DNA of 64,000 nucleotides, from NCBI GenBank assembly GCA_015233135.1, contig JADFYH010000001.1, positions 27,930-91,929 on the forward strand. Direction: 5' to 3'. The position numbers and the translations under genes were made by a program. Numbering within the stretch: the first letter of the stretch is position 1; every line of letters begins with the position of its first letter. Positions 9,993 to 63,793 of the stretch are shown piece after piece. The DNA is from Deltaproteobacteria bacterium (lineage in GTDB: Bacteria > UBA10199 > JADFYH01). The notes under the pieces are model-generated. The model was not told where the DNA came from, searched no databases, and was given only the letters and a program-made list of their open reading frames with translations.

Positions 9993-10133
9993 CCCTTTTT
10001 TATTTTTCAGCGTTGCAGCTGAGAGACCCTGTAACTGCGGTCGCGCGAGTGACTAACATAACCTCAAACAGGATCTATGATCCGCATCATATTGCTCAGA
10101 TTATTTTTTTAGGCCAATTTCAAGGCAACGAAT

Positions 10134-36497: not shown

Positions 36498-36558
36498 ATT
36501 GGATGCAATTTGATCTCAATTGAGACCTTCTTCCAACTCAAATACCTGGGGAGGTATT

Positions 36559-40803: not shown

Positions 40804-42005
40804 ATATTTAGTTTAAAATAAGTAATAATAGCTGTGATTGGGAACAACCAAAATTGATAATATATAATGTTATTAAACAAGCTAGAAAATAAAACTATTA
40901 TAATAATATAATTTAAAAAGTCAGTTATTATTTCTCTTAAAATAATACCTTTACTCGATAATTGCCTTTTAATTTTAAAATAAAAAAAACTGAAAAATGT
41001 AAAAAAAACTAAAGAAAAAATTAACCCAAAACTTACAAATGTAAGTAATACAGATGAGTCGATTGGTAATGAGAAAGCATCAAAACCAATTCCAAGCACT
41101 GGGTGTTCAAAAAACAGATTAAACCCAAATTGAGCGGAATTCAGCCTAGCCAAAGCCGAACCATCACTATCCATATTCTCTAGCTTTCCTGAAAAATAAA
41201 CCAATTTCTCAGGAAATACCAATGCAGAAAAAATTAAAACCAATAGAGCTGTTCCCGCAATAATAATGTTACCTTTTTTAAATTTAAATAAACTATAAGG
41301 GGATATTTTTTTTAGAAAAAAAGGAATTAAAATTAAAAAGAGAGTTCCAATGCCACTTCTCGATCCAGTCAATAGGATAGTAATTAAGAATATATATACA
41401 ATTAATAGATAAATAATTTTATTTGTTAATTTATATAAATATTTACCTATCAAAACAGGAATACATGCTATTGAAGCGTAATAATTTGGATCAAAATAAG
41501 CAGAAATAAATCTTGCACTATGGGGATCGCCTTCAAAGGCAATTCCATGGGCATTTAAAAACAACCAAAACTCTGCAGAATCCGGAAAATATATATATAT
41601 AACAAGACTGACAAAAAACAATACGATATACGCACATATAATTAAGTTACAAAACTCGACCGAGTTACATTTGTAAGTTTTAAAAAAGAAATACCCTGCA
41701 ATTGTACCCGATAGAAGAATAGATACAACCCTTAGATAATATAATAAGGATGTAATGGAAAAACCATAAGCAGAAGTCCCATACAAATAAGAAATGGACA
41801 AAATAAATAATATTAATAACCAGCTTTTCACTATCTTAATAATTAGTCTTGTATAAAACGAATAGAAAAATAATACTGCATATAATAGGACTTCTGTGAA
41901 TAACAGATTATTACTATGCAAATTAGTCAACGAAAGGTTAACTATTCTTGGCAAATTTCCAATGCTCAGATAAATAAATATGGTTATAAATACGATATAT
42001 CTCAT
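40617..42005 (-). CDS. Polytopic membrane protein, O-antigen polymerase/ligase (Wzy/WaaL)-like
   Basis: About 12 hydrophobic helices, AT-rich island composition. The 3' end (40617-40803) overlaps the convergent large-protein gene, so this tail may be fortuitous read-through. Confidence 0.45.
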   Translation of the reverse strand: MRYIVFITIFIYLSIGNLPRIVNLSLTNLHSNNLLFTEVLLYAVLFFYSFYTRLIIKIVKSWLLILFILSISYLYGTSAYGFSITSLLYYLRVVSILLSGTIAGYFFFKTYKCNSVEFCNLIICAYIVLFFVSLVIYIYFPDSAEFWLFLNAHGIAFEGDPHSARFISAYFDPNYYASIACIPVLIGKYLYKLTNKIIYLLIVYIFLITILLTGSRSGIGTLFLILIPFFLKKISPYSLFKFKKGNIIIAGTALLVLIFSALVFPEKLVYFSGKLENMDSDGSALARLNSAQFGFNLFFEHPVLGIGFDAFSLPIDSSVLLTFVSFGLIFSLVFFTFFSFFYFKIKRQLSSKGIILREIITDFLNYIIIIVLFSSLFNNIIYYQFWLFPITAIITYFKLNIYGKLTDSRLLIASLPISDLEYNNTSSMLPVKELGEVPVNERSPMTIGPVDGDVLTNGASTM

Positions 42006-48437: not shown

Positions 48438-48779
48438 TTACTCTAATTGGGCCTTCCAATTTTTAGAAAAAAACAAAGCCTTATCATCAATCATAATATC
48501 GCATCGAGGTTTTCCCATATATAATTCATGAAATTTAACACCCCAAGCTTTTAATTGATTTAAAGTTAAACTATACCCCTCTTTATACACCTTTATAATA
48601 TCATTATTATTTCTACCCATAAATCGCGATGTATAGAAATTTATTTTATGACCTTTCTCATAAAGTTTATTGATTAACTCAATAGCGTCTTTAAAAGGAG
48701 TCAAATTTTCGTAATCCCCCTCACATTGAGAACATATTGTGCCATCAATATCAAATAGGAATGTCTTTAACTGAGCCAT
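48438..48779 (-). CDS. HAD-superfamily phosphatase (small, GmhB-like context)
   Basis: Motif I FLFDIDGTI; 113 aa. Confidence 0.55.
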   Translation of the reverse strand: MAQLKTFLFDIDGTICSQCEGDYENLTPFKDAIELINKLYEKGHKINFYTSRFMGRNNNDIIKVYKEGYSLTLNQLKAWGVKFHELYMGKPRCDIMIDDKALFFSKNWKAQLE

Positions 48780-49435
48780 GATTGAAAATCAGAAATAAAT
48801 TGGTTTACCGAGGCGGTTGTTTGGGGATGTGCACACATTTTAGAAACAATTTTGTAACCGGCCGTAACTATGTGCGCGCCTTTATTCCAAGAACTTACGA
48901 TATCTTCTTCCCTTCGTATACTTCCCACAATGATTTCACAATTTAATTTAGATTGATTTAAAAAAGTTGCCACCTTTTCTATCACATTCAAAGGGTACCC
49001 ACTTACATCGAGCAGACGATTATAAAACAAAGATACATATTTTGCTCCCGCCAATGCAGCCAGCATCATTTGAGATTCCGAGAAGCAACAAGTGCAATTT
49101 ACTGGAATCCCTTTTTTTGATAGCTCTGATATTACTTCAAGTTCATCCCAGCCAATAGGAACTTTGATAGCAATATTTTTGTAGTCCAGCTTTTCATAAA
49201 ATTCTAACCCTTGTGATATCATTTCAGAAGGCTTGGTAGCAAACACTTCAACACTAATAGGTAAACCATCATTATATTTTTTTGTGAGAGAGATTATTTT
49301 TTTAATATGCCCTAAAAAATCAGACTTAGGTTCTTTTGAAATAATAGATGGATTAGTTGTAATACCCGACACGATCCCTTTTTTTAAAGAATCCTCAATT
49401 TCACTAAGATTTGCTGTATCGATAAATAATTTCAT
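48767..49435 (-). CDS. Fructose-6-phosphate aldolase / transaldolase (TalC/Fsa family)
   Basis: MKLFIDTANLSEI...GITTNPSI, the hallmark N-terminus of the Fsa/TalC subfamily. Confidence 0.8.
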   Translation of the reverse strand: MKLFIDTANLSEIEDSLKKGIVSGITTNPSIISKEPKSDFLGHIKKIISLTKKYNDGLPISVEVFATKPSEMISQGLEFYEKLDYKNIAIKVPIGWDELEVISELSKKGIPVNCTCCFSESQMMLAALAGAKYVSLFYNRLLDVSGYPLNVIEKVATFLNQSKLNCEIIVGSIRREEDIVSSWNKGAHIVTAGYKIVSKMCAHPQTTASVNQFISDFQSWLS

Positions 49436-49447
49436 AGGTTACCTTTC

Positions 49448-50290
49448 TTAAGAATCTACATGTTGATAAGTATTACCATCTTCTACAAGATGAGAATCTT
49501 TGTCGTCATCTTTTGTAGAAACTTCTATAATGACTGAATCTTCTAAACCCATTCTACAATGCATTAAACCGACAGGTATCACAAAGGCATCACCAGGATT
49601 CAAGATAAGAGATTTATTCTCAGCCCTTCCTACTCTGACACCCACCTTCACCAAACCAGACTGTAAAAAATAAGCCTCTTTTTTCTTACAATGAAATTCC
49701 ATACTGCCCCGACTGCCCGCCTTTAGAACTATTCGTTTAGCTGCATAATCATCGCTTAAAATACTCTCTATAGAGCCCCAATACTTTTCTCTATAATCAA
49801 AAGTATGTTTAATATTAACTTCGGTTTTTTTTTCAGAAAAATCTTCTACTTGAAGTTTTACAGAAGAAGGCGCTGGTTCAAGACAATAAACATCTTCTTT
49901 ACTTGCTGAATCTCCAAAAAAATAAACTACACTTTTTTCAAAAGAATAAAGACTATGGGCAATCATCTTTGGTATCTGAAATACATCTCCTTTCTTGAGA
50001 AGATGCCACTTGGTATTTCCATCTTTTTCTATAATTTTTAAAACTACCAAACCTTCTTCTACAAAAATAGCCCCGTTTACACTTCTGTATAATTTTAATT
50101 GAGTAGATTTATGTGGAATTAAGTTTAATTGTCTCAAGCAAAACTCTGACTCAGACACAATATCCAATTCATAACCAGAGGGCGTTAATTGCTTAGAGGC
50201 TGTCAACACTCTATTAATTGAATCAAAACTTAATCCATATTCAGACATTGGATTGGCCATAATATTTTGATTTTCCATGCTTTCTTTCAA
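49448..50290 (-). CDS. Bicupin protein (putative sugar isomerase/epimerase)
   Basis: Two cupin-like beta-barrel motifs (G..H...H and PxG..H patterns); AT-rich island. Confidence 0.35.
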   Translation of the reverse strand: MKESMENQNIMANPMSEYGLSFDSINRVLTASKQLTPSGYELDIVSESEFCLRQLNLIPHKSTQLKLYRSVNGAIFVEEGLVVLKIIEKDGNTKWHLLKKGDVFQIPKMIAHSLYSFEKSVVYFFGDSASKEDVYCLEPAPSSVKLQVEDFSEKKTEVNIKHTFDYREKYWGSIESILSDDYAAKRIVLKAGSRGSMEFHCKKKEAYFLQSGLVKVGVRVGRAENKSLILNPGDAFVIPVGLMHCRMGLEDSVIIEVSTKDDDKDSHLVEDGNTYQHVDS

Positions 50291-50933
50291 AGTGTTTTAT
50301 AAACAGTTGAGAATTGGGCTTACTTTCGCCCTTACTTAGTAACAGCGTCTTAAATGCCAAACGAGCTACTTGCTCTACTATATACGAGTTTTCATAAGCT
50401 TGTTGTATATTCTTTCCCCAAGCAAATACCCCATGACTTTCAATGAGGGCAGCAGGGATTTCAAGCATATTTACTTTTTTTTCCTGAAAATAAGCTATAA
50501 TTCTCTGACCAATACTTACCTCATAATTTTCATTAATCTCATTATCAGTAAAATTTCCAATCACTGGAACATCACTTTTAAAATAATCCGCATGAGTTGT
50601 ACCTAAAATTGGAATAGGCATTTTCGCCTGAGCAAATGCAGTAGCATAAGGCGAATGAGTATGAATAACGGCTCCAATTTCATTGGAACCTTTATACAAC
50701 TCCAAATGAGTGGGTGTATCCACAGAAGGCTTATACTGACCAACAAAACCACCTTCCAAATTTACTTTTACAATTTTTTCTGGAGTAAGATCTTTAAAAG
50801 ATACACCAGAGGGCTTAATGTAGATATGTTTTCTATCTGGTTCAATTGCGCTTGCATTTCCCCAAGTTAAAACAACTAAACCGGATTGAATAAGCTCTTG
50901 GTTAATTCTTACAACTTCATTTATAATAGACAT
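50241..50933 (-). CDS. Class II aldolase/adducin-family protein (fuculose-1-P aldolase / ribulose-5-P 4-epimerase-like)
   Basis: GAVIHTHSPYATAFA metal-binding His motif. Confidence 0.75.
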   Translation of the reverse strand: MSIINEVVRINQELIQSGLVVLTWGNASAIEPDRKHIYIKPSGVSFKDLTPEKIVKVNLEGGFVGQYKPSVDTPTHLELYKGSNEIGAVIHTHSPYATAFAQAKMPIPILGTTHADYFKSDVPVIGNFTDNEINENYEVSIGQRIIAYFQEKKVNMLEIPAALIESHGVFAWGKNIQQAYENSYIVEQVARLAFKTLLLSKGESKPNSQLFIKHFERKHGKSKYYGQSNV

Positions 50934-50943
50934 AGAAAAATCA

Positions 50944-51924
50944 TTATTTAAGATTTGAAATATACTCGTTTAATTCAGATTTTAAAGGAGGCTTAGTTCC
51001 TTTTTTAGTTACTGACAAACCCGCCCAACAATTAGCTAAAAAAAGCGACTCTTCAGGATACGATAAAGGATTACTCAAAGAAAACGATGCAAGGAATGAA
51101 TCTCCAGCGCTACAAGGATCAACCTCTTCAACCTTTATGGAAGAGACAAAGAATGTTTCTCGATTTTTTTCTTTTAAGAACGCACCTTGATTACCCAACG
51201 TAAGACAAATACTAGAGTTTAGTAACGCACTCAGCTTAGTTAAATCTTGTTGTGGATTAAAATTCTGCAAAACTTGATTAGCCTCTTTTAAATTTAAACA
51301 AATATAATCCGAACCGGCATAGTTCAAGTGGTTAGATTCCCGTTGAGACACTTGAGAGCTTGCGAATACAGGTACTTTAAACTTAAAAGACAAATCATTA
51401 ATACTCTTTGCAAGAAAATTACTTATCATTCCATGACGATAATCCACCAGAAGCAACAAATCGAAACTTGAAATGTTTTTTTCTATATAAGCTATAATTT
51501 CTTTTTCAACTTGAGATTCAATTTCAGTATTATCAATTTGATCAAACTGCAAAAGCTTATAACCATCTACCCAAAATCTTTTTTTAACTGTCGTACATTT
51601 ATTTGCAATTTTAATTTTATGGAAATTTAATTTAGGATGAGACCACTCGTCATAATATTTACCAGCAAGATCTTCACCTATAACAGACACAAACGTTACC
51701 TGAGCACCCAGCTCCAGAAGATTTGTCACCACACAACTAGCGCCACCAAAGGAACACTCAGTTTTTTCTTCTCGAGCAACAATAGTAGGCGTTTCAGCAG
51801 ATTTACCGATAGCATGACCATATACATATATATCTAGTATAGAATCGCCTATTACTAAAACTTTTTTATTACCAAATTCTTTGACTATTTGAGACAAAAT
51901 ATTTTTATTTATAACTTTTCCCAT
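50944..51924 (-). CDS. PfkB-family sugar kinase resembling HldE domain I (heptose 7-phosphate kinase)
   Basis: VLVIGDSILDIYVYG, SFGGASCV, DPCSAGDSFLA, ANCWAGLSVTKKGT. Confidence 0.7.
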   Translation of the reverse strand: MGKVINKNILSQIVKEFGNKKVLVIGDSILDIYVYGHAIGKSAETPTIVAREEKTECSFGGASCVVTNLLELGAQVTFVSVIGEDLAGKYYDEWSHPKLNFHKIKIANKCTTVKKRFWVDGYKLLQFDQIDNTEIESQVEKEIIAYIEKNISSFDLLLLVDYRHGMISNFLAKSINDLSFKFKVPVFASSQVSQRESNHLNYAGSDYICLNLKEANQVLQNFNPQQDLTKLSALLNSSICLTLGNQGAFLKEKNRETFFVSSIKVEEVDPCSAGDSFLASFSLSNPLSYPEESLFLANCWAGLSVTKKGTKPPLKSELNEYISNLK

Positions 51925-52799
51925 GTCTCTTTTTCTTTAATTTTTTTCAGAGTCTGAGTAGTAGAATATCCCTCAATAAAAGGGAAAATTTTTACTTCAA
52001 CCTGTTCGGGAATCGCATCTCTTATTTTCACTTCCTGAGCAGTCCACTCTCCACCTTTTACCACTACATCAGGCAATATTTGTTCGATAATATTTTTTGT
52101 TTTAACATCATCAAAAATAATAACCTCATCTACTTCTTGAATAGACTCCAGAAGCTTTTTTCTATCTCCTTCAGAATTAATAGGTCGACTTGGTCCCTTC
52201 AACTCCTTCACTGCTCTATCGGAATTTATACCCACAATTAATTTTGACCCTAAGCTTTTTGCAAATTTTATTAGCTCTATATGTCCCGTATGAAGAACGT
52301 CAAACACACCATTGGTAAATACAATTTTACCAGGTCTGTGATAACTTATTCTCTCTACCCTTTTTACATGGCGACCTTCACCAAAGGGTGTATCTAACCA
52401 CATATCCACAATCTGAGTTGTAACTTCCAGCGAAGTAATCCAAGCACCTAGACACAACACATTCGAATCATTATGTTCTCTACACTTGGGAGCACTTTCC
52501 AAATTATGGATGAGAGCAGCTCTTACATTAGGGAAACGATTTGCCATTATACTCATCCCAACCCCGGTACCACAAACAAGTATCCCTTTACTCACATCCC
52601 TTTTATTGACAATTTGACCAAGTTGACTGGCGTAATCCGTATAATCTACTTTTTTATTAATGTCGTAAGGACCTAAATCGATGCAATTGTATGATTTTTC
52701 TTTAAGATAAGAATGGATTATTTTTTTTAGCTCAATACCATTATGGTCTGAGGCGATAACAATATTTTTTTCTTCATTGCTCATCAAAAACTCCGACAA
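51909..52799 (-). CDS. Fusion of RpiB/LacAB-family sugar-phosphate isomerase and HldE domain II-like nucleotidyltransferase
   Basis: N-terminus IVIASDHNGIELKK...CGTGVGMSIMANR (RpiB fold); C-terminus FTNGVFDVLHTGHIELIKFAKSLGSKLIVGINSDRAVKELKGPSRPI...VVKGGEW (cytidylyltransferase-like, close to HldE adenylyltransferase). Confidence 0.75.
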   Translation of the reverse strand: MSEFLMSNEEKNIVIASDHNGIELKKIIHSYLKEKSYNCIDLGPYDINKKVDYTDYASQLGQIVNKRDVSKGILVCGTGVGMSIMANRFPNVRAALIHNLESAPKCREHNDSNVLCLGAWITSLEVTTQIVDMWLDTPFGEGRHVKRVERISYHRPGKIVFTNGVFDVLHTGHIELIKFAKSLGSKLIVGINSDRAVKELKGPSRPINSEGDRKKLLESIQEVDEVIIFDDVKTKNIIEQILPDVVVKGGEWTAQEVKIRDAIPEQVEVKIFPFIEGYSTTQTLKKIKEKETWEKL

Positions 52800-52880
52800 T
52801 TGAGAAGGCTTTTTCAGGTATAAAATCTTTTAGGGCCTGTACCTAGTTTACCAACTAGGATCAAGCATAAAAATTGCCCA

Positions 52881-54086
52881 TTAAAGCAGATTTAAAGAAG
52901 CTTCATAGACCTTATAAACATCAATATTTTGAACACATTCCATCTCAAGACATCCTTTACTTAGATAGCAAGGGCTGCAAGGTGTAGGATAAGAAATGAA
53001 CATATTTTTATCGGAAGGGGGTCTCCATTGAAAAACATTAGTAATACCATGACCAATAATCACACATGGCTTATCAAAAGCCGAAGCTATATGGGCTATT
53101 ACAGAATCAGCACAAATCACAAGGTCTGCAAGATAAACCGCTGAAACAAACTCTTGCCAATTGAATTGATTGCACAGGTTTAAACAATTAGAAAAACCCT
53201 CAATTGCTTTCTGAATATTGATATTTTCTCTCGCTCCAGCCCCTGTAAAAAGAATGGTATATTTCTGATCTTTAAAAAGATTTATCAACTGACTCCATTT
53301 TGTCAGTGGCCACTCTTTAATACTTGCACCAGAACCAATATGAAAAACTATATAGGCATTTGCCTCAAATCCACATACCTTTAGTTTTTTTAACAAATAA
53401 TTTAAATCTTCATAGCTTACTTTTAGAGAAGGCCTTAATTTTTCAACATCCAGTTTTTTTGAAAAAGTGAATTCTAATAAATCAATATGATATTGTGCGA
53501 CAGGCTGATTTTTTTCTTTCCAGTCGAGGGAGTGAGTAAGAAGGTTTTTAAATCCTCCACTCGAGTATCCTGTGCGAATAGGAATATTTGCTTTCCAAAT
53601 TAGAGGGATTGAATTTGGGAAATAATAATACAGATCAATTGCGACATCATAATGAATTGACCGAATTTCACTCAGAGCTTTTTTACGACTAAAATAATAT
53701 TGTTTTATTTTTTCAAATAAATTCTTTGAGGATCGATTTAGCTTCCAATGATCAAAAGTATGAATCCAATCGACTTGAGGATTATGCTCGATTATTTGTT
53801 TAGCCCAGCTTCCTACTAGAAAACCTATCTTTGCATTAGGATAGTTTTTTTTAATTATTGGAATAATAGAAGTGGCAATAACAACATCACCAAGATGAGA
53901 AATATTACAGATAAGAGCAGCGTTAAAATAATTTAACCTTGGGCTTTGCTTTGACTTTTTTAGGATTTTAATTTTAAAAAGATAATTAGTAAAAATAAGG
54001 AGGAAATAAAGAATACGGTTTCTTACTAAAAACTTCCCACTTAAAGGAGATGTTTTTCGACTACCTATCATTTCTTTACCACACAA
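52881..54086 (-). CDS. Glycosyltransferase family 9 (LPS heptosyltransferase-like)
   Basis: NISHLGDVVIATSIIP...FHIGSGASIKEWPL...LADLVICADSVIAHIASAFDKP typical GT9 layout. Confidence 0.7.
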   Translation of the reverse strand: MCGKEMIGSRKTSPLSGKFLVRNRILYFLLIFTNYLFKIKILKKSKQSPRLNYFNAALICNISHLGDVVIATSIIPIIKKNYPNAKIGFLVGSWAKQIIEHNPQVDWIHTFDHWKLNRSSKNLFEKIKQYYFSRKKALSEIRSIHYDVAIDLYYYFPNSIPLIWKANIPIRTGYSSGGFKNLLTHSLDWKEKNQPVAQYHIDLLEFTFSKKLDVEKLRPSLKVSYEDLNYLLKKLKVCGFEANAYIVFHIGSGASIKEWPLTKWSQLINLFKDQKYTILFTGAGARENINIQKAIEGFSNCLNLCNQFNWQEFVSAVYLADLVICADSVIAHIASAFDKPCVIIGHGITNVFQWRPPSDKNMFISYPTPCSPCYLSKGCLEMECVQNIDVYKVYEASLNLL

Positions 54087-54814
54087 AGTAAATTAGCTGA
54101 GTATATCCCCCCCATACTATCTCCGTTGGCAATCAACATATAGGCTTTAATGCACGGCTTAACCAAAAAATTCCACAACAGTCTTCTTATCATACTGATT
54201 GGTCCATGAACATATGGGGGCAACTCAAAAAATGAAAAATTGGGACTAAATCCTGATAACAACAAACTTTGTCTTAAACTAGACAGTGTATACGCACGCT
54301 TATGGGTAATATCACCATAGGTATGTACTGATATAGGACATATAGCATTCGGAACCTGTATCAGCAGCACTCCTCCGGTTTTCAACGCTACAAAACAAGC
54401 ACGTAATAGATTTATTGAATCCTCCAGATCTATATGTTCGAGAATATCACAAGCAATAATTGTATCGTAAACAGACGTTTTATCTTCTAAAAATGAAAAA
54501 GCATCCGCTAAAAAAATATCGTCCAATCCTAACTTCTCCTTAGCATATACAACTTGCTCTTCACTTATATCTATACCTAACAATTCGGTAAACCCATTTT
54601 CCTTTAATGCCTTTAAATACCTCCCGTATCCACAGCCTATCTCTATAATTTTGGATTTCTTATCATGAGGCAAATGAGGTAGAAGAAACTTTTCAAAATA
54701 TCCCCGACTCCACTCAGTTAACGACTCTTCATTAGTATCAACCAACATTGCAGTCGAAGTATACTTTTTGAAAAATCTCTCATTATCAATTATTTTAGAT
54801 GTATTTTGGATCAT
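54068..54814 (-). CDS. Class I SAM-dependent methyltransferase
   Basis: IIEIGCGYGRYL motif I, DTIIACDILEH motif. Confidence 0.7.
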   Translation of the reverse strand: MIQNTSKIIDNERFFKKYTSTAMLVDTNEESLTEWSRGYFEKFLLPHLPHDKKSKIIEIGCGYGRYLKALKENGFTELLGIDISEEQVVYAKEKLGLDDIFLADAFSFLEDKTSVYDTIIACDILEHIDLEDSINLLRACFVALKTGGVLLIQVPNAICPISVHTYGDITHKRAYTLSSLRQSLLLSGFSPNFSFFELPPYVHGPISMIRRLLWNFLVKPCIKAYMLIANGDSMGGIYSANLLCVVKK

Positions 54815-54815
54815 A

Positions 54816-55799
54816 TTATTTAATCTTCACAACACGAGATTTAATAAACTTATAAATAAAGCTTATTGGAGCCTTTGGGATTAATAATAAAGGCACGCAA
54901 ACTCCCCAAAAAATAAAATATTTTTTATAATAAGGAAACATAAGTACAAATAATCCATTAGTGCTCTTGTTATCTCTTATTTTTACGAGAATATCGTGAA
55001 CAACAAACTCTTTAATAATTCTACATTGAGCTTTATTAACTGCTTTTAAGGTATATCCTATATATTTAAGCTTATTTAGAATCAGCGACATTCCTATTAC
55101 ATTGTATTTATACCAATCGTACCCCCCTGAGTTGTTCCCTCTATTGCAAACCACAGGAATAGGATTATAAATCACATTACATTTTGGAAAGAGACCATAG
55201 TAAGCCGCATAAACCTGTGGATATCCATAGTCCAGAAAAAAATCGTACTCTTTATCTGGGCGCTTAATAAAACAAGACTTTTTAAAAACAAGTGAAGACA
55301 CATAACCTAAATGTATACCAAATTTTGATAAAATATCGTTAGGATTGCTGAACGTTTCCTCAGATTGTATCCTAAAAAAAAAATTCTTTATTAATTTCGA
55401 AAAATCTTTTGACCAAACAGAATAGTTATTTATCACTAGATCATAATTGAGTTTTATATATTGCATAATTATGCCAATGGCGTTTTTGGTAACTTTATCA
55501 TCATCCCCTAAAATCCAAATATATTTACCTGCAACTCTTTTTGTTAGAGAGCGTACATTTCTTTCGGCACCTATATTTTCTTCATTCCTGTAGTAAGTAA
55601 TGAAAGGAAATGAAATTAAATAAGCCCTTACCATTTTATCTGTTCCATCCATACTAGCATTATCGGAAATAATGATTTCTATTTCCGATTCAAAGTCTTT
55701 TATAGATTCTATTACACTATCTAAACATTCCCTTAACATAAATGCTCTATTGTAGGTAGGGATACATATAGACAACAAAATTTCTGGATTAGAGTTCAT
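54816..55799 (-). CDS. Glycosyltransferase family 2
   Basis: LSICIPTYNRAFML, DNASMDGT, DDD. Confidence 0.75.
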   Translation of the reverse strand: MNSNPEILLSICIPTYNRAFMLRECLDSVIESIKDFESEIEIIISDNASMDGTDKMVRAYLISFPFITYYRNEENIGAERNVRSLTKRVAGKYIWILGDDDKVTKNAIGIIMQYIKLNYDLVINNYSVWSKDFSKLIKNFFFRIQSEETFSNPNDILSKFGIHLGYVSSLVFKKSCFIKRPDKEYDFFLDYGYPQVYAAYYGLFPKCNVIYNPIPVVCNRGNNSGGYDWYKYNVIGMSLILNKLKYIGYTLKAVNKAQCRIIKEFVVHDILVKIRDNKSTNGLFVLMFPYYKKYFIFWGVCVPLLLIPKAPISFIYKFIKSRVVKIK

Positions 55800-56698: not shown

Positions 56699-58048
56699 CT
56701 AAGCTTCAGCATGCCATTCTCTCCTATATTCATAAAAGATACTTGTTGTCCACGGCATAATTACTATTGCATTGATAATTAAATACGAACTTACAGCTCC
56801 AATAGGACCAAACTTACTTCCATAAAACCACACACACAATCCAATCAATAAGCTACCAACAACAGACATTCCGGTTAGAACCTCTTTTTTATGGGCTCTT
56901 AAATATGCTGCTTCACAAAGAGTGATATGAAAAAATATAGTCGCTAGTGAAAACACGACAACCTCTTTGATAGGCAACAATCTATCTAAAATTTTTATGT
57001 GATTTAGTTTTAAAATTATTAGTAATGAACTAAATAAGGACACCACAAACATAAGCACAAAAAATGATTTTATAGAATTTCTAAACCAAATTTTATCCAA
57101 AGATTTATATTCTTTCTTTGCTATCAAAATTCCAAAGCTTGGTATTTTTATTTGAATCCAAGCTATTCCAATATTTTGAATAGCACCAACTATTTGCCAA
57201 GTTAAACCCATTTGCCCAGCTACAACAGGCCCATAATAATGAAACATTACTGGATTGAATAATGAAAATGAAAAGTAATTTACTAAGCCCGCCAACGCAA
57301 GCCTTGATTGCATTGGTAGAACTTCTTCTTTCCAATTTATTACATCGGTTTGCTTAGTTCTATATATAGATTTAATAAAATTTTTATACTTAATTAATAA
57401 AGCTAGATTACATAAAAGTAAAAAAACTGGTTGTGCTAAGGATGCCCATAATTTTGCCTTTAATCCTAGTAATATACAAAAGGCAATACTGCCTAAAACT
57501 CCCTGGATAAACCTATATTTATATAAAGTTTTTAGTTGATTACAACCTTCGAGAATAGAAATTATTGGTAGCAAAAATAACTGCAGGGCAGAGAGAGCGA
57601 CTAAAACCAACCACGGAAATAACCAAATATTTAATCCCTCGTAATGCGATTTAGAAAAAAATAAAACTCCTATAATGCTTACTATTGCTAAGAATAAAAT
57701 AGAGACCACGAGATACCATCTTACAGTTAACTGAAATAAACTTTTCAACCTCGATAAGTTTGTTTTTTCTCCAATAATATATCCTTGATCATCAAAGTTA
57801 AGGTTAGACCATTCATGACTAGCAAATTGAATGATGACAGTACTGAATGCGAGTTCAAAAAAAATTTGAAGCCCTACCAAGCTACTAAAAGTATAGTAAA
57901 AGCCCTGCAATTTAGGCTCTAAATACTTGTATATGAAAAATATGGTAAGAGGACCAGAAAAAACAGACCAAATTCTGGAGGAAAGATAAATTACAAGAGT
58001 ATAATCAACTTCGAAAAACTTTAAAATTTTTCTTATGAAAAAAATCAC
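56699..58048 (-). CDS. Polysaccharide flippase (Wzx/MOP superfamily)-like membrane protein
   Basis: 449 aa, about 12 TM helices, polysaccharide locus context. Confidence 0.55.
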   Translation of the reverse strand: MIFFIRKILKFFEVDYTLVIYLSSRIWSVFSGPLTIFFIYKYLEPKLQGFYYTFSSLVGLQIFFELAFSTVIIQFASHEWSNLNFDDQGYIIGEKTNLSRLKSLFQLTVRWYLVVSILFLAIVSIIGVLFFSKSHYEGLNIWLFPWLVLVALSALQLFLLPIISILEGCNQLKTLYKYRFIQGVLGSIAFCILLGLKAKLWASLAQPVFLLLCNLALLIKYKNFIKSIYRTKQTDVINWKEEVLPMQSRLALAGLVNYFSFSLFNPVMFHYYGPVVAGQMGLTWQIVGAIQNIGIAWIQIKIPSFGILIAKKEYKSLDKIWFRNSIKSFFVLMFVVSLFSSLLIILKLNHIKILDRLLPIKEVVVFSLATIFFHITLCEAAYLRAHKKEVLTGMSVVGSLLIGLCVWFYGSKFGPIGAVSSYLIINAIVIMPWTTSIFYEYRREWHAEA

Positions 58049-58956
58049 AAAATAGAAGTAGCCACTTTAATGATATTTTCTATTGATAAACCATACAAAG
58101 ATCGAAGGGCCATCTGCGATGCTGCTATTGTTTGAACTTTCCTATCCAATTTAATGGGCATAAAACGCACGTAAAAGCTCTCCTGCATCAAAACTTCAGA
58201 TACCACTGAAGCTAACCCACCTTCCCCATGTTCTTCGATAGTTATAATTTTTTTTGTTTTAATAATTGACTGCAAAATACTATCAACATCTAGAGGGGAA
58301 ATAGTATGGGCACTAAGCACCTCAACTGAAATTTTTCTACTTTCAAGGTGTTGTACAGCTTGCATGGCTAGATCAAGAACTCCGCCTGTAGTAATAAATG
58401 TAACATCCGTTCCTTTTTTTACTCTTATAATTTTACCAATTTGAAAGTCTGGAATATCTTGATAAACAATTGGCTCGCCAGCTTTACCTAAACGCAAGTA
58501 ACACGGGCCATTCCATTTTACCATTGCTTCAGTAGCAAGCTGAGTTTCAACAGGATCACCCGGAGCAATCACTGTCATATTTGGTAATACACGCATTAAC
58601 GCTAAATCTTCTATTCCATGGTGCGTATACCCTTGTGTGCTATATGTAAAACCACCTCCTACCGAGACTATTTTTACGTTAGCATTATGATAGCAAACAT
58701 CATTTCTAATTTGCTCTAAACATCTAACTACAGGAAAATTTGCAATCGAATAAGTAAATACAGTTTTACCAGACAATGCCAAGCCTGCCGCGACTCCAGT
58801 CATATTCTGTTCCGCAACCCCTACGTTAATAAAACGACTTGGAAACTTCTCTATAAATGGTTCCAAAACAGAAAAACCTAAATCACCGCATAACAAGAAT
58901 ATGTTTTCATCATGCTCGGCCAACTCACACAATGTTTTTACAAAAGTGTTTCTCAC
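58045..58956 (-). CDS. Transketolase, C-terminal (pyrimidine-binding) subunit of split transketolase
   Basis: VGVAEQNMTGVAAGLALSGK...GGGFTYSTQGYTHHG. Confidence 0.85.
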   Translation of the reverse strand: MRNTFVKTLCELAEHDENIFLLCGDLGFSVLEPFIEKFPSRFINVGVAEQNMTGVAAGLALSGKTVFTYSIANFPVVRCLEQIRNDVCYHNANVKIVSVGGGFTYSTQGYTHHGIEDLALMRVLPNMTVIAPGDPVETQLATEAMVKWNGPCYLRLGKAGEPIVYQDIPDFQIGKIIRVKKGTDVTFITTGGVLDLAMQAVQHLESRKISVEVLSAHTISPLDVDSILQSIIKTKKIITIEEHGEGGLASVVSEVLMQESFYVRFMPIKLDRKVQTIAASQMALRSLYGLSIENIIKVATSIL

Positions 58957-59765
58957 TGCAAATCTAGCTCCTTTAATGCTTTTTCTAATTGCTCAATATT
59001 AGGTGATTTATAATGCCACTCCAGCTTATCCTCCATGAAACTAACTCCTTTACCTTTAACTGTATGAGCAATTACTACGCTGGGCTTACCTTTATTAAAG
59101 GGAATTAACTTAAAAACATCTTCAATTTCTTTATGAGAATGACCATCAATTTCTTTCACTACCCAACCAAAAGACTCAAACTTGGATTTTAATGGCTCTA
59201 AGTCTAAGACGTCTTTCACAGTACCAAAGCTTTGTATCTTATTATAATCAACAATTAAAATGAGGTTATCCAACTTTTGATGAGGAGCAAAAAGAATAGC
59301 TTCCCAATTTGATCCTTCGTCCAACTCTCCATCACTGACTAAAGTGAAAACACGATAATCTAAAGAATCTGCCTTTCCAGCTAGAGCCATACCACACGCA
59401 ATAGGTAATCCATGACCTAATGAGCCAGTTGAGACCTCTACTCCAGGCACATAGTGGCTGATATGACCCATTAACCTAGAGCCATCTTCACAGTAAGTAT
59501 CAAGCTCCTCTTTTGGAAAGAAATCTAACTCACCAAGCAAGGCATACATAATTGCTGCAGCATGTCCTTTACTTAAAATAAATCTATCACGATTTTTATT
59601 TTTTATATCAGCAGGCGAGATTCTAAGAACTGTAGTGTACAACACTGAAATAATATCAGCCATAGAGAAACAACTTCCCACATGAGAAGCCTTTGATTTA
59701 TGAACCATTTCAAGAGTTTTTTTTCTTATTTTTTTAGATAAGATTAACGAATTATTAGTTAGCAT
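58953..59765 (-). CDS. Transketolase, N-terminal (TPP-binding) subunit of split transketolase
   Basis: GHISHYVPGVEVSTGSLGHGL, GELDEGSNWEA. Confidence 0.85.
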   Translation of the reverse strand: MLTNNSLILSKKIRKKTLEMVHKSKASHVGSCFSMADIISVLYTTVLRISPADIKNKNRDRFILSKGHAAAIMYALLGELDFFPKEELDTYCEDGSRLMGHISHYVPGVEVSTGSLGHGLPIACGMALAGKADSLDYRVFTLVSDGELDEGSNWEAILFAPHQKLDNLILIVDYNKIQSFGTVKDVLDLEPLKSKFESFGWVVKEIDGHSHKEIEDVFKLIPFNKGKPSVVIAHTVKGKGVSFMEDKLEWHYKSPNIEQLEKALKELDLQ

Positions 59766-60681
59766 TAAGCTTTCCTCTATACCAATCCACCGTCTTTTTT
59801 ATACCATATTCTAATTTTGTTTTTGGATACCAATTAATGGTTGATTTTATTTTTGTAATATCTGCTTGCAGATGCATTACTTGATCTTCACGATAGGGAA
59901 CTTCTCCAAATTTAAGCTTTATATTTTTATCAATATATACCGAAATCATTTCGACAATATTTTTTATACTCTGCACTTTACCTGAACCCAAATTAAAAAC
60001 ACCTTCAGCTTTTTGATTAATACCTAATTGATAAATTGCCTCAACAGCATCTTCAACATACAAATAATCCCACAGCTGTTCACCCAAAGTAAGCTTAGGA
60101 ATTTTTTTATTTAAAAGCTGATTTATAACTGAAGGCAACATCCAATACTCATGATCCATAGGACCATAAGTTGAAAACACTCTGACCCATACTAGTTTTG
60201 AATTACACAATTTAGATAATTGAGAAGCAATTAACTGAACAGATAATTTAACTGTACCATACAGAGTTGTAGGGGAGGTCAAATCCTCTTCTTTTGCTAT
60301 TCTATTTAAAGGACCATATTCTGCTTGAGAACCTAAAATAACCCATCTTTTACAATCTGCTTTATGACAAATAGAGAGTAAGTCGAAAGTACTCTTTAGA
60401 TTTGAAGTTACTTGAGCAAAGTCATTTCTTGAATTATTGGCAACACCTGACCAACCTAGATGAAATAACACTTCTGGTTTAAATTTAAAAATTTCTTGTT
60501 CAAGATTTTCTATAGAGAAGTAATCACAAGTGAGTACTTTAATTTTATCTAAACACGCACCAATTCTCCAAAAATCAGAATTCGGACCAGCTACTAATAA
60601 TAACTCATGTTTATTTTTGCAGAGTAATTTTACCAAATATGAACCAATGAATCCTGTTCCGCCAGTGATCAACATTCTCAT
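59755..60681 (-). CDS. NAD-dependent epimerase/dehydratase
   Basis: ITGGTGFIGSYLVKLL. Confidence 0.75.
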   Translation of the reverse strand: MRMLITGGTGFIGSYLVKLLCKNKHELLLVAGPNSDFWRIGACLDKIKVLTCDYFSIENLEQEIFKFKPEVLFHLGWSGVANNSRNDFAQVTSNLKSTFDLLSICHKADCKRWVILGSQAEYGPLNRIAKEEDLTSPTTLYGTVKLSVQLIASQLSKLCNSKLVWVRVFSTYGPMDHEYWMLPSVINQLLNKKIPKLTLGEQLWDYLYVEDAVEAIYQLGINQKAEGVFNLGSGKVQSIKNIVEMISVYIDKNIKLKFGEVPYREDQVMHLQADITKIKSTINWYPKTKLEYGIKKTVDWYRGKLNAN

Positions 60682-61928
60682 GCCAAAAGCTCCAACATAG
60701 ATACAAGCTTACCACCCTTTTGCAGATAGTCTTTAAGCTCTCTTTTTATTTCATCTAAATATCCAAACGAAAATACAATCACCTCATCCACAAAATTTTG
60801 TAATAAATATTCAGGTGAAACTATGGGAACATGAGTATTTGGCGTAAGAAAACCATGAAAGCTAGCATTTTTATCACATAAAAAATTAATCTCTTTATGA
60901 GTGAGGCCCGACATGGCTAAAGTCATAACACCCCGCCCCCCCCCACCATAGCCAGCAAATTTAAATCCGTCAGATATTTTACTTTGTACATAAGATCTCA
61001 TCTTGGAATAAGATTTTGCAACTTTTTGAGCAAATTCTTCATAGATTTTATATTGCTTAAGATAAGTAAAATCAGCGCAGAAAGAAACACTTTCATCGGA
61101 TTTGTGAGAAGAATTATTGAGGGCTGCAGCCACTAGAAGAGAATTTCCTCTTCTAAGTTTTTCAGGAACCAGATCTGTGCTAAGAAGTTTAAATCCAAAT
61201 CGTTCTAAGGTTTCTTTAATTGTTAAGGGAGTCATGTAAATAGAATGCTCATGTTCAAACAGACAAGTTTCACATCGAGCAATAATTTTAGATAAGTCAT
61301 GTATCTCTATAATGAGAACCCCTTTATTTGGATCCAAAATTCTTTTTACTGATTCAAGGAATTGTTTAGGTTGAGGTAAATGATCGAAGGTATAGGTGAG
61401 TAACACCACTTGAGCAGGTAAAAACTCTTTTGGAATTTGATCAATTGTTTCTGCATTAAACAAAGTTTGAATTGTAGGCACATCTCGTTCTTTGGACAAA
61501 TTTGTAAGTTCTGCAGAAGGTTCAATACCCAACACTTTCATTTTTTTTTGCTTAAAATATTTTAATTGCTCGCCATCGCCTGATCCAATTTCAATAACAT
61601 GATCGCCTTCGCGCAATTCAAATTTATTAAAAGTATTATCAGACAACATTTTCATAAAACTTCTTGTAAACTCCGAGCTTGAAGAAGTGTATTTATAGTC
61701 CCGATAGTATTCTTGTACTTCCACATCATGTAATGTTTGTGTAACTTTGCACTCTTCACAAAAAAACAGGTCAATTGGATATGAAAATTCCGTTCCAACT
61801 TTAGCAGGTGTTATGATTTGATCGGTAAAAGGCATATCATCAAAAGTTAAAAAATTCTTGAGGGATGAAGAATTACAAATTCGACAACGTTCGTTCTTTT
61901 GAATATTAATTTTCATGTTAAAACCCAT
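60678..61928 (-). CDS. NDP-sugar C-methyltransferase-like (Zn-ribbon + class I MTase + C-methyltransferase C-terminal domain)
   Basis: CRICNSSS...CEECK zinc ribbon, VIEIGSGDGEQL motif I, architecture of TylC3-type sugar C-methyltransferases. Confidence 0.65.
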   Translation of the reverse strand: MGFNMKINIQKNERCRICNSSSLKNFLTFDDMPFTDQIITPAKVGTEFSYPIDLFFCEECKVTQTLHDVEVQEYYRDYKYTSSSSEFTRSFMKMLSDNTFNKFELREGDHVIEIGSGDGEQLKYFKQKKMKVLGIEPSAELTNLSKERDVPTIQTLFNAETIDQIPKEFLPAQVVLLTYTFDHLPQPKQFLESVKRILDPNKGVLIIEIHDLSKIIARCETCLFEHEHSIYMTPLTIKETLERFGFKLLSTDLVPEKLRRGNSLLVAAALNNSSHKSDESVSFCADFTYLKQYKIYEEFAQKVAKSYSKMRSYVQSKISDGFKFAGYGGGGRGVMTLAMSGLTHKEINFLCDKNASFHGFLTPNTHVPIVSPEYLLQNFVDEVIVFSFGYLDEIKRELKDYLQKGGKLVSMLELLA

Positions 61929-61936
61929 GTCTTCCC

Positions 61937-63025
61937 TTAGTTTTTTTCTGTGACATATTTGAACTCCTGATATATTTTGACTTGTTCTAGAGAAAAAAAC
62001 CTTATATCTTCACCTATAGCCAATTTTTTATACCAAGCCACTATCCAGTTTAATGTAATCTCTAAATTCAACCTTGACTTCCAACCCAAAACAGATCGGG
62101 ATTTGGATGAATCTAACTTTAAATAAGCTGCCTCATGCGCTTGATCAGCACCATCCACCACCCACTCAATATTTGCCCCCCACATTTTACATAACTTATC
62201 CACTATCCAAGATACTGGCTTTGCATCTTCATCCACTGGACCAAAATTAAAAGCTTCTGCAAACTTTCCCTTACTTTCATAAAGTTTTTGAGCAAGCAAG
62301 AGGTATCCACATAAGGGTTCCAGAACATGCTGCCAAGGTCGAATAGCCTCAGGGTTGCGTATGATGGGTTTTTCATTTTGCAATAAAGACTTCATTATAT
62401 CTGGGATTAAACGATCTTCGGACCAATCACCACCACCAATTACATTACCTGCGCGAGCCGAGGCTAAAGCGACGCCATGTTTTTGATAATCATTTAAATT
62501 AAAAAAAGAGTTCCGATAAGCAGAAACAACTAACTCCGCACAACCTTTACTATTGCTGTAGGGATCATATCCTCCCATGGGTTCATTTTCTCGATAAGAC
62601 CAAATCCATTCTTTGTTTTCGTAGCACTTGTCACTTGTCACAACTACAATAGCCCTAAGTGAATCACAATAACGGGCTGCTTCAAGTACATTGACTGTGC
62701 CCATCACATTAGTCGAATAAGTTTCAATAGGATTTTTATAAGAATATCGTACCAATGGCTGAGCTGCCATATGAATGACAATTTCAGGTTTTTCTTCTAA
62801 CAAAACTTTCTTAAGCTTTTCAAAATCGCGAACATCTTCGTAGAATGTTTTTACGCTTTTATCTAAAGCAGCTAATTTAAAAAGAGAAGGCTCTGTTGGA
62901 GGGGGTAGAGAATATCCCACAATATTAACATTCAAATTTTGCAAAAACAAACAAAGCCAACTTCCTTTAAAACCGGTATTTCCGGTAATTAAAACTTTTT
63001 TATTTTTCCAAAAATCTAAATCCAT
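61937..63025 (-). CDS. rfbG: CDP-glucose 4,6-dehydratase
   Basis: VLITGNTGFKGSWLCLFL, YSNSKGCAEL (YxxxK). Confidence 0.85.
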   Translation of the reverse strand: MDLDFWKNKKVLITGNTGFKGSWLCLFLQNLNVNIVGYSLPPPTEPSLFKLAALDKSVKTFYEDVRDFEKLKKVLLEEKPEIVIHMAAQPLVRYSYKNPIETYSTNVMGTVNVLEAARYCDSLRAIVVVTSDKCYENKEWIWSYRENEPMGGYDPYSNSKGCAELVVSAYRNSFFNLNDYQKHGVALASARAGNVIGGGDWSEDRLIPDIMKSLLQNEKPIIRNPEAIRPWQHVLEPLCGYLLLAQKLYESKGKFAEAFNFGPVDEDAKPVSWIVDKLCKMWGANIEWVVDGADQAHEAAYLKLDSSKSRSVLGWKSRLNLEITLNWIVAWYKKLAIGEDIRFFSLEQVKIYQEFKYVTEKN

Positions 63026-63793
63026 TTACCAAACTTTCCATGGTGCCTTACCCGAGGCCCAGAGCTCTTCTAAGTGGTTTTTATCTCTCAATGTATCCAT
63101 AGGCTGCCAAAAACCTTGGTGCTTGAAAGCTGAAAGCTGGCCTTCTTCAACTAACTTTTCTAAAGGTTCCCTTTCCCAAATTGACTCATCCCCTTTTATA
63201 TATCCAAAAACCTTCGGAGAAAGCACAAAAAAACCTCCATTAATCCAAGCCCCGTCGCCTTGGGGTTTTTCTTCAAAACTTTCAATCTTATTTTCTAAAA
63301 TCTTAATGGAACCAAATCTACCTGGAGGCTGAGTGGCAGTCAGGGTTGCAAGAGTTTTTTGTTTTTTGTGAAAATCAATCAAACTAGATATATTCACACT
63401 TGATAAGCCATCCCCGTAAGTGAAACAAAAATCTTCGTCCCCCAGATAATTTTGAACTCTCTTCAAACGCCCACCCGTCATTGTGTTTTCACCTGTATCT
63501 ACTAATGTTATCTTCCATGGTTCAGAGCTATTTTGATGTACTTCCATTTTGTTACTACTCATATCGAAAGTAACATCTGAGTTATACAAAAAATAGTTGG
63601 CAAAATATTCTTTAATTACATAACCTTTATAACCACAACAAATTATAAAATCATTAGCCCCATATGCAGAATATAACTTAAGTATATGCCATAATATTGG
63701 CTTAGCACCAACTTCTATCATAGGCTTGGGCTTTAAGTGCGTCTCCTCTGATATACGAGTACCCAACCCCCCCGCTAAAATTACTACTTTCAC
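63026..63793 (-). CDS. rfbF: Glucose-1-phosphate cytidylyltransferase
   Basis: MKVVILAGGLGTRISEET...KPKPMIEVGAKPILWHIL; GTG start overlapping the upstream stop (GTGA). Confidence 0.85.
   Translation of the reverse strand: MKVVILAGGLGTRISEETHLKPKPMIEVGAKPILWHILKLYSAYGANDFIICCGYKGYVIKEYFANYFLYNSDVTFDMSSNKMEVHQNSSEPWKITLVDTGENTMTGGRLKRVQNYLGDEDFCFTYGDGLSSVNISSLIDFHKKQKTLATLTATQPPGRFGSIKILENKIESFEEKPQGDGAWINGGFFVLSPKVFGYIKGDESIWEREPLEKLVEEGQLSAFKHQGFWQPMDTLRDKNHLEELWASGKAPWKVW

Follow-up and report, generated by a model that had tools for sequence, protein, structure and literature searches.

A split transketolase in a surface-polysaccharide island as a candidate branching enzyme for a CDP-6-deoxyhexose

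The DNA analysed here, called the window throughout, is a stretch of 64,000 nucleotides of contig JADFYH010000001.1, from the genome (2.6 Mb, 98% complete) of a Deltaproteobacteria bacterium of the UBA10199 lineage. At 58045-63793 it carries a cytidine diphosphate (CDP)-sugar module of six genes, two of which code for the subunits of a split transketolase of a kind that we call glycan-type. A preliminary description, made from the sequence, had named rfbF, rfbG, a sugar C-methyltransferase, a short-chain dehydrogenase/reductase (SDR) and split transketolase genes at this position. We recovered all six open reading frames (ORFs) on the minus strand, and their matches to hidden Markov models (HMMs) are strong and beyond chance:

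63026..63793, minus strand: rfbF, glucose-1-phosphate cytidylyltransferase, 255 amino acids (aa), makes CDP-D-glucose; TIGR02623 equivalog, 471.7 bits against a cut-off of 300.25, residues 1-255 of 255; PF00483.
61937..63025, minus strand: rfbG, CDP-glucose 4,6-dehydratase, 362 aa, makes CDP-4-keto-6-deoxy-D-glucose; TIGR02622 equivalog, 495.8 bits against a cut-off of 278.45, full length.
60678..61928, minus strand: nucleotide diphosphate (NDP)-hexose C-methyltransferase of the TylC3/TcaB9 type, 416 aa; PF08421, PF13489 and PF08484 above their cut-offs.
59755..60681, minus strand: extended SDR, reductase partner of the transketolase, 308 aa; PF01370 (Epimerase), 132.5 bits.
58953..59765, minus strand: tktN, thiamine diphosphate (ThDP)-binding subunit of a glycan-type split transketolase, 270 aa; PF00456 (Transketolase_N), 153 bits.
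58045..58956, minus strand: tktC, pyrimidine-binding and C-terminal subunit of the same enzyme, 303 aa; PF02779 (Transket_pyr), 109 bits, and PF02780 (Transketolase_C), 79 bits.

The six genes are translationally coupled in the order rfbF-rfbG-C-methyltransferase-SDR-tktN-tktC. Neighbouring ORFs abut or overlap by 0-11 bases, and the sole gap, of 8 bases, separates rfbG from the C-methyltransferase gene. RfbF and RfbG belong to TIGR02623 (RfbF/DdhA) and TIGR02622 (RfbG/DdhB), respectively, each matching over its full length above the curated equivalog cut-off, and TktN and TktC jointly hold all three transketolase domains recognised by Pfam.

The third gene has the complete architecture of a sugar C-methyltransferase, including the C-terminal domain on which the earlier assignment depended. 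The N-terminal zinc domain Methyltransf_13 (PF08421) scored 50.8 bits (cut-off 31.3), Methyltransf_23 (PF13489) 61.9 bits and the C-terminal Methyltransf_14 (PF08484) 82.2 bits (cut-off 23.5). Residues 14-409 align to residues 12-407 of TylC3 (PDB 4RV9; 182 bits), and the protein also aligns over its full length with KijD1 and TcaB9. The protein has the zinc cysteines (Cys15, Cys18, Cys57 and Cys60) as well as the H226-E-H228 motif. By homology, the carbon beside the 4-keto group, C3, is most likely its target. Domain scans found no enzymes of 3-deoxygenation (E1/E3; DegT/E1 gene) in the polysaccharide island that surrounds the module, the DegT genes of this genome lying on other contigs. Because the island lacks E1 and E3, the module sugar should be a 6-deoxy hexose and not a 3,6-dideoxy hexose. 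Yersiniose proper, a 3,6-dideoxy product, was rejected for the window because there is no DegT/E1 gene in the island. Thus, of the branched-chain CDP-deoxysugar proposed in the preliminary description, a route to a C-methylated CDP-6-deoxy sugar is supported by homology, whereas the label "yersiniose-type dideoxyhexose" was inexact.

The preliminary description had also asked how the transketolase pair relates to a housekeeping enzyme. The pair is not the only transketolase of the genome: contig C55 carries a second split pair (L001:1462-3347), to which both subunits of the island pair are 40% identical. In a survey of 93 species genomes of the phylum, 82 had a TktN match at E ≤1e-20, mostly with 33-47% identity. 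A glycan-type TktN (50-59% identity) occurred in 11 of the 92 other genomes of the phylum and in none of the nine genomes of the same family, and in a protein collection thousands of proteins from other phyla showed 63-76% identity to the island TktN. We built a tree of 111 TktN sequences, with support from the Shimodaira-Hasegawa-like approximate likelihood ratio test (SH-aLRT). The C55 copy fell within a 17-row clade of the low-identity, housekeeping copies of the phylum (SH-aLRT 100), whereas the island TktN grouped with enzymes of glycan loci, in rows from Chloroflexota, Omnitrophota, Acidobacteriota and bacteria of the candidate phyla radiation (CPR). The NCBIfam transketolase models were matched by the island pair below their cut-offs. 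Given 40% identity and separate clades, the island pair is not orthologous to the housekeeping transketolase of the organism, and the idea that it is the sole or the housekeeping transketolase was rejected on the evidence of the C55 pair, the phylum distribution and the tree. Judged by sequence, TktN and TktC of the island are members of a large cross-phylum subfamily of split transketolases, the glycan type. Bradyrhizobium diazoefficiens SZCCT0138, Paraburkholderia piptadeniae STM7183 and Chthonomonas calidirosea are among the cultured bacteria that have it. The housekeeping transketolase is itself split, and families of the phylum differ in having split (frames of about 280 aa) or fused (600-700 aa) forms.

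The residues of the active site fall into two groups. The ThDP/metal motif, the activating glutamate and the catalytic histidines of canonical transketolase (EC 2.2.1.1) are all present: TktN keeps D145-G-E147, N175 and the histidines H28, H68, H101 and H251, and TktC keeps the cofactor-activating Glu49 and His112. The canonical sugar-phosphate pocket (Arg359, Ser386, His469, Arg528 and Asp477 in yeast numbering) is incomplete, as seen when TktC was aligned with human transketolase, the split enzyme of Carboxydothermus hydrogenoformans and 60 members of the subfamily. Gly100, a glycine in 98% of the subfamily, replaces the histidine of yeast 469/human 416; Gln108 stands at the position of Asp477/424, which is variable in the subfamily; and Lys158 stands at that of Arg528/474. 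Of the four phosphate-binding residues, two (Arg2 and Ser29) are kept. We take yeast His469/human His416 to bind the substrate phosphate, and yeast Asp477/human Asp424 to bind the 2-hydroxyl of the acceptor. The roles of the canonical residues come from established structural work on the yeast, E. coli and human enzymes. Further marks set the subfamily apart from housekeeping enzymes, namely H118 (Q in the latter), Y252 (G), L168 (R) and S152 (M) in TktN, together with Tyr69, Asp86 and Tyr105 of TktC, which lie near conserved active-site motifs and are fixed differently. This pattern would fit an enzyme that forms the ThDP carbanion and passes it to a different acceptor. Since the ketol intermediate is held at its C1 hydroxyl by two histidines, both retained, a dihydroxyethyl (hydroxyacetyl) unit is favoured, though this falls short of proof. 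Only PF00456, PF02779 and PF02780 scored above their cut-offs, and the pair does not have the single-chain, acetolactate-synthase-like fold of YerE, the branching enzyme of yersiniose synthesis. The island transketolase may thus act like YerE, but it is not a member of the YerE family.

A TktN profile scan of species genomes gave 80 related loci from many phyla and one archaeal metagenome-assembled genome. We searched 10 kb around each for homologues of the window genes, called and clustered the ORFs and annotated the neighbours with Pfam. Both the clusters and the Pfam annotation point to polysaccharide loci throughout. A tktC gene was found in 79 of the 80, rfbF in 24 (median identity 51%), rfbG in 28 and the C-methyltransferase gene in six. 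Directly beside the pair we found DegT-family genes (14 upstream and 14 downstream), SDR genes (11 and 5), and genes for glycosyltransferases of family 2 (GT2; 15), TylF-type methyltransferases (9), initiating Bac_transf sugar transferases (7) and aldo-keto reductases (4); PglF-like dehydratases were also among the neighbours. The complete order rfbF-rfbG-C-methyltransferase-SDR-tktN-tktC recurs in a member of the Planctomycetales (L021) and one of the Bacteroidales (L071). In L021 the identities to the window genes are, in order, 50, 45, 52, 48, 60 and 55%, and a second C-methyltransferase-like gene (26% identical) lies between the SDR gene and tktN. Variants of the order occur in L043, L063 and L078, with Omnitrophota and Phycisphaerae among them.

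In 17 of the 80 loci, the DegT protein is of the E1 type (RfbH/DdhC), with the motif SFYPAHH(I/M)T, in which a histidine replaces the lysine that binds pyridoxal phosphate. These proteins are 309-542 aa long, most of them 430-460 aa, two being cut at a contig end, and rfbF is present in at least 12 of the 17 loci:

E1-type DegT loci, with the DegT genes near position 10000: L006, L007, L012, L018, L020, L022, L027, L030, L044, L048, L064, L066, L068, L075, L078, L083 and L084.

E1 is the CDP-4-keto-6-deoxyglucose 3-dehydrase, whose 3,6-dideoxy-4-keto product is the substrate of YerE in the synthesis of yersiniose. That the E1 of these loci makes the substrate of YerE suggests that the transketolase occupies the place of YerE. 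Five loci also have, directly upstream of tktN, a gene for a fusion of a GNAT acetyltransferase to a Lys-type DegT aminotransferase (800 aa in L029, about 600 aa in the others), which in L006, L007, L018 and L066 is preceded by the E1-type dehydrase gene:

GNAT-DegT fusions: L006:8160-9998, L007:8115-9941, L018:8166-9983, L066:8193-9974 and L029:7545-9947.

Transamination and N-acetylation of a branch ketone would fit such a fusion.

The SDR of the window has the NAD-binding motif GGTGFIGS and the catalytic Y141-x3-K145 (YxxxK). Its nearest structures are mixed, comprising dehydratases (Pal and dTDP-glucose 4,6-dehydratases), the reductase Rmd and epimerases (UDP-glucose 4-epimerase and CDP-tyvelose 2-epimerase). 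Orthologues with 32-48% identity were found in eight of the 80 loci, in seven of which the gene ends directly at the start of tktN, and only two of the eight loci have the C-methyltransferase gene. That the orthologues abut tktN, mostly where there is no C-methyltransferase, suggests that the SDR is the partner of the transketolase, as YerF is of YerE. We propose that it reduces the branch ketone; the alternative is that it reduces the C4 ketone. Because the neighbours of the pair are CDP-glucose genes, E1-type 3-dehydrases, DegT enzymes and reductases, and because pocket residues have been lost, comparative genomics supports a sugar-tailoring role for the transketolase, a use that the preliminary description had raised as unusual; the branching reaction itself would be a further step.

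The reading that we favour, with a probability of about one half, is that the pair carries out a ThDP-dependent two-carbon (C2) branching of a CDP-4-keto-6-deoxyhexose, followed by reduction, in a chemistry like that of YerE and YerF performed by a different enzyme family. With similar confidence, the island pair would then be a neofunctionalised paralogue and not an enzyme of the pentose-phosphate pathway. According to equivalog-level homology, RfbF would form CDP-glucose and RfbG would convert it to CDP-4-keto-6-deoxy-D-glucose. The TylC3-type enzyme, similar to its models over its full length, would then place a methyl group beside the 4-keto group, most likely on C3. A TktN/TktC heterotetramer would form a ThDP-bound C2 carbanion, either dihydroxyethyl, from hydroxypyruvate or a ketose, or, less likely, hydroxyethyl from pyruvate. 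Added at the C4 ketone, the carbanion would give the CDP-sugar a tertiary alcohol with a hydroxyacetyl (or acetyl) branch, whose ketone the adjacent SDR would reduce, as YerF does after YerE, and a GT2 enzyme could move the finished sugar into the repeat unit. Variants are conceivable in which the methyl group may be placed on the branch instead of C3, or in which the SDR may reduce C4 and the transketolase act elsewhere. More tentatively, the natural acceptor of the whole family might be the ketone of a nucleotide-activated sugar, which would make this the first case of tertiary-alcohol formation by a transketolase in primary, that is, cell-surface glycan, metabolism; in the window, the product might be a CDP-6-deoxy-3-C-methyl-4-C-(1,2-dihydroxyethyl)hexose.

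The module is one part of a horizontally acquired island for a surface polysaccharide of the Wzx/Wzy type. From about 40.6 kb to the window end the GC content is 30-38% (32% for the island), as opposed to about 47% in the rest of the window, and the island genes between 45712 and 63793 are on the minus strand. Downstream of tktC come, in order, a Wzx-like flippase gene, an ORF to which we could give no identity, a GT2 gene, a methyltransferase gene, a GT9 gene and an ADP-heptose-like block. Three of these genes give context to the module:

56699..58048, minus strand: Wzx-like flippase, 449 aa; NF041503 (O-unit flippase-like), E 4e-15, below the cut-off; overlaps tktC by 4 bases.
54816..55799, minus strand: GT2 glycosyltransferase, 327 aa, candidate transferase for the CDP-sugar; PF00535, 84.5 bits.
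54068..54814, minus strand: S-adenosylmethionine-dependent methyltransferase, 248 aa, possibly a sugar O-methyltransferase; Methyltransf_23, _12, _25 and _11 above their cut-offs.

GT2 genes follow tktC in 12 of 49 related loci. Beyond the ADP-heptose-like block lie a large membrane ORF and a GT2 gene of the polyprenyl-phosphate type, then, on the plus strand, a 526-aa ORF with no domain match, an SDR gene and a GT4 gene, and, on the minus strand, a gene for a Wzy_C-family protein (40617-42005). The 3' end of this last gene is overlapped by a plus-strand ORF of 1427 aa (36520-40803), with three fibronectin type III domains and, at the C-terminus, a laminin-G/concanavalin-like domain, which ends at the drop in GC content, the left edge of the island. 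Upstream of rfbF, the operon goes on beyond the window end with a GT9 gene and an initiating sugar transferase gene (Bac_transf, 244 aa). After these lie two toxin-like genes with PIN domains and a fragment (121 aa) of a Bac_transf gene. The stretch from the initiating transferase gene to the fragment is L226:1634-4480, equal to 65404-68250 in window numbering, and past it the GC content is back to the genome level. The PIN genes and the fragment look like the scar of an older locus that the low-GC island replaced. A trio of QueC, DUF366 and radical-SAM (QueE-like) genes, of intermediate GC content, adjoins the island (L226:6331-8349).

The ADP-heptose-like block (48438-54086, minus strand) is a second nucleotide-sugar module, made of other parts. 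It consists of GT9, a fusion of RpiB to an HldE-type adenylyltransferase, an HldE-kinase-like PfkB protein, an AraD-like class II aldolase/epimerase, a bicupin, a fructose-6-phosphate aldolase (FSA/TalC) and a 113-aa capsule-type phosphatase; GmhA was not found within the island. Homologues of the RpiB fusion, the aldolase, the cupin and FSA occur in none of the 80 glycan-type loci, and PfkB has a single match, with 25% identity. Conversely, a metagenome scan showed that the six-gene order of the cassette recurs on marine contigs, whole in L118 and in part in L117, L120 and L122, with 45-65% identity for the RpiB-adenylyltransferase fusion. No transketolase was found on L118 (16 kb), L122 (13.8 kb), L120 or L117. 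L116 (10 kb) has the first two cassette genes at the contig end only, with no transketolase upstream of them. A search of the phylum for the fusion returned only housekeeping RpiB. Since each module recurs without the other, the two are separable, and the transketolase goes with the CDP module. That it forms part of the heptose-like cassette was rejected, both because the 80 loci lack the cassette genes and because the cassette contigs lack a transketolase.

Several observations weigh against a C2 branching at C4. We know of no natural sugar that has both a 3-C-methyl group and a two-carbon branch at C4. RfbF, RfbG, the C-methyltransferase and the SDR suffice for a C-methyl sugar, and genes resembling those of the pentose-phosphate pathway lie in the same island, 5 kb downstream. 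Arg2 and Ser29 are retained, so that a phosphorylated donor, or even acceptor, is still possible. About half of the related loci pair the transketolase with Lys-type aminotransferases and PglF-like dehydratases, and because such loci may spend the 4-keto group on transamination, the reaction common to the subfamily is perhaps not C4 branching. No transketolase has been shown to accept a ketone or a nucleotide sugar, the Streptomyces case being a proposal only (PMC12247030).

Sufficiency of the first four genes is also the basis of an alternative in which the module makes just a CDP-6-deoxy-3-C-methylhexose resembling vinelose, possibly O-methylated by the nearby methyltransferase, with the transketolase a passenger or decayed. 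Vinelose, the CDP-activated 6-deoxy-3-C-methyl-2-O-methyl-L-talose of Azotobacter vinelandii, sets a precedent. However, tktN and tktC are intact and translationally coupled, and no cofactor or catalytic residue has been lost. The order of the six genes is also kept across phyla, and the type of SDR tracks the transketolase and not the C-methyltransferase. We regard this alternative as improbable. An equally improbable idea is that the split transketolase feeds sedoheptulose-7-phosphate, or another ketose phosphate, to the ADP-heptose-like cassette and has nothing to do with the CDP-sugar. The cassette does share island and strand with the pair, lying 5-10 kb downstream, and the retention of Arg2 and Ser29 in TktC would agree with a phosphorylated substrate. 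Yet the phosphate-binding histidine is lost, and the genome holds a housekeeping transketolase, transaldolase (Tal)/FSA and RpiB outside the island. Moreover, not one of the 80 transketolase loci has a convincing cassette homologue (the lone PfkB match aside), and the cassette recurs on metagenome contigs with no transketolase. At the locus itself, the pair overlaps its direct neighbours (tktN the SDR gene, tktC wzx), whereas it is set apart from the cassette by four other genes.

It is somewhat easier to imagine, if still rather unlikely, that the transketolase tailors the glycan by some reaction other than C4 branching, the CDP-sugar of the window being just a C-methyl 6-deoxyhexose finished by the SDR. 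It could, for example, extend a sugar aldehyde by a C2 unit, provide a glycolyl or hydroxy-keto substituent for later attachment to an amino or hydroxyl group, or bring about an acyloin-type rearrangement of the keto sugar. In many loci the pair has a Lys-type DegT aminotransferase on one side and a PglF-like dehydratase on the other, or adjoins a GNAT-DegT fusion, which would fit an N-linked substituent, and the conservation of the subfamily (63-69% identity across phyla) despite varied nucleotide-sugar contexts suggests one small substrate. In the pathways of tetrahydroisoquinoline antibiotics, split transketolase-like pairs deliver glycolaldehyde units to carrier proteins. In the window, however, the pair has no carrier protein, lipoyl protein or acyltransferase. 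It is constantly paired with a reductase or an aminotransferase, as one would expect if a branch ketone is processed, and its association with E1-type dehydrases mimics the context of YerE. A ThDP-dependent branching of the keto sugar remains the reading that we prefer.

YerE-like enzymes, and enzymes resembling the E1 component of pyruvate dehydrogenase (PDH), are known to branch keto sugars in a ThDP-dependent way, but for transketolases this has only been proposed, in a few Streptomyces antibiotic clusters. A 2025 review describes the transfer of hydroxyacetyl to a keto sugar by split transketolases as a proposal in the pathways that build miharamycin and amipurimycin, and its 13 candidate sugar-branching split transketolases are all from Streptomycetes, none of them characterised (PMC12247030). 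A 2026 study of ten split transketolases tested only aldehyde acceptors, and mentions neither glycan clusters nor ketones (PMC13663882). In the literature that we searched, we found no description of the glycan-locus subfamily, and nothing relevant on transketolases with C-methyltransferase, CDP-glucose or O-antigen clusters, nor on vinelose. If the branching proposed here is true, thousands of "transketolase" annotations in polysaccharide loci of bacteria, CPR bacteria and some archaea are wrongly placed in central metabolism, and they would stand for a hidden class of branched surface sugars. Biocatalysis would also gain natural ketone-accepting transketolases that give hydroxy-functionalised tertiary alcohols.

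Among known systems, the C-methyltransferase of the window shares its three-domain architecture, Cys4 zinc site and HEH motif with the NDP-hexose 3-C-methyltransferases TylC3, TcaB9 and KijD1. The characterised members act on thymidine diphosphate (dTDP)-sugars in antibiotic pathways, whereas the context of the window enzyme points to a CDP-sugar. The best structural relative of the transketolase is the split enzyme of C. hydrogenoformans (PDB 6YAK/6YAJ; 239 bits for TktN and 192 bits for TktC, which is closest to 6YAJ). It and the housekeeping split transketolases have in common with the window pair the division into subunits, the ThDP motif and the catalytic histidines. The housekeeping enzymes, however, keep the His, Asp and Arg of the pocket, have Gln and Gly at the positions of His118 and Tyr252 in the glycan type, and form a separate clade with another genomic context. 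The transketolases of the miharamycin and amipurimycin clusters, which we liken to the window pair by description only, are also encoded by two genes in a sugar-modifying cluster, with a ring ketone as proposed acceptor; they belong to antibiotic clusters of Streptomycetes, whereas the window pair belongs to a cell-surface polysaccharide island and to a subfamily of many phyla. Pairs of the alpha-KADH2 type (AviB1/B2, the aldgarose enzymes and KbDH-alpha/beta) are likewise two-subunit ThDP enzymes that add a C2 branch to a keto sugar, as we propose for the window, and the branch is afterwards reduced or transaminated (PMC12247030). They are PDH-E1 alpha/beta enzymes that use pyruvate, whereas TktN of the window matches Transketolase_N (153 bits) and not the E1 dehydrogenase family.

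The closest parallel in chemistry is YerE/YerF in the synthesis of yersiniose A by Yersinia pseudotuberculosis (DdhA, DdhB, DdhC/E1 and DdhD/E3). Both systems take the CDP-glucose route to a CDP-4-keto-deoxyhexose, and both have a ThDP enzyme with an adjoining reductase gene. The proposed chemistry, carboligation at the C4 ketone and subsequent reduction of the branch, would also be alike; the E1-type dehydrase of that pathway accompanies the glycan-type transketolase in the 17 loci listed above. The Yersinia pathway has E1 and E3, whereas the window has neither, and the C-methyltransferase would tailor C3 instead. YerE, which uses pyruvate, consists of one chain and belongs to the decarboxylase (acetolactate-synthase-like) superfamily (PMC12247030), whereas the window enzyme is a two-subunit transketolase. 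Whereas YerE donates an acetyl unit, the donor in the window would probably supply a ketol (hydroxyacetyl) unit.

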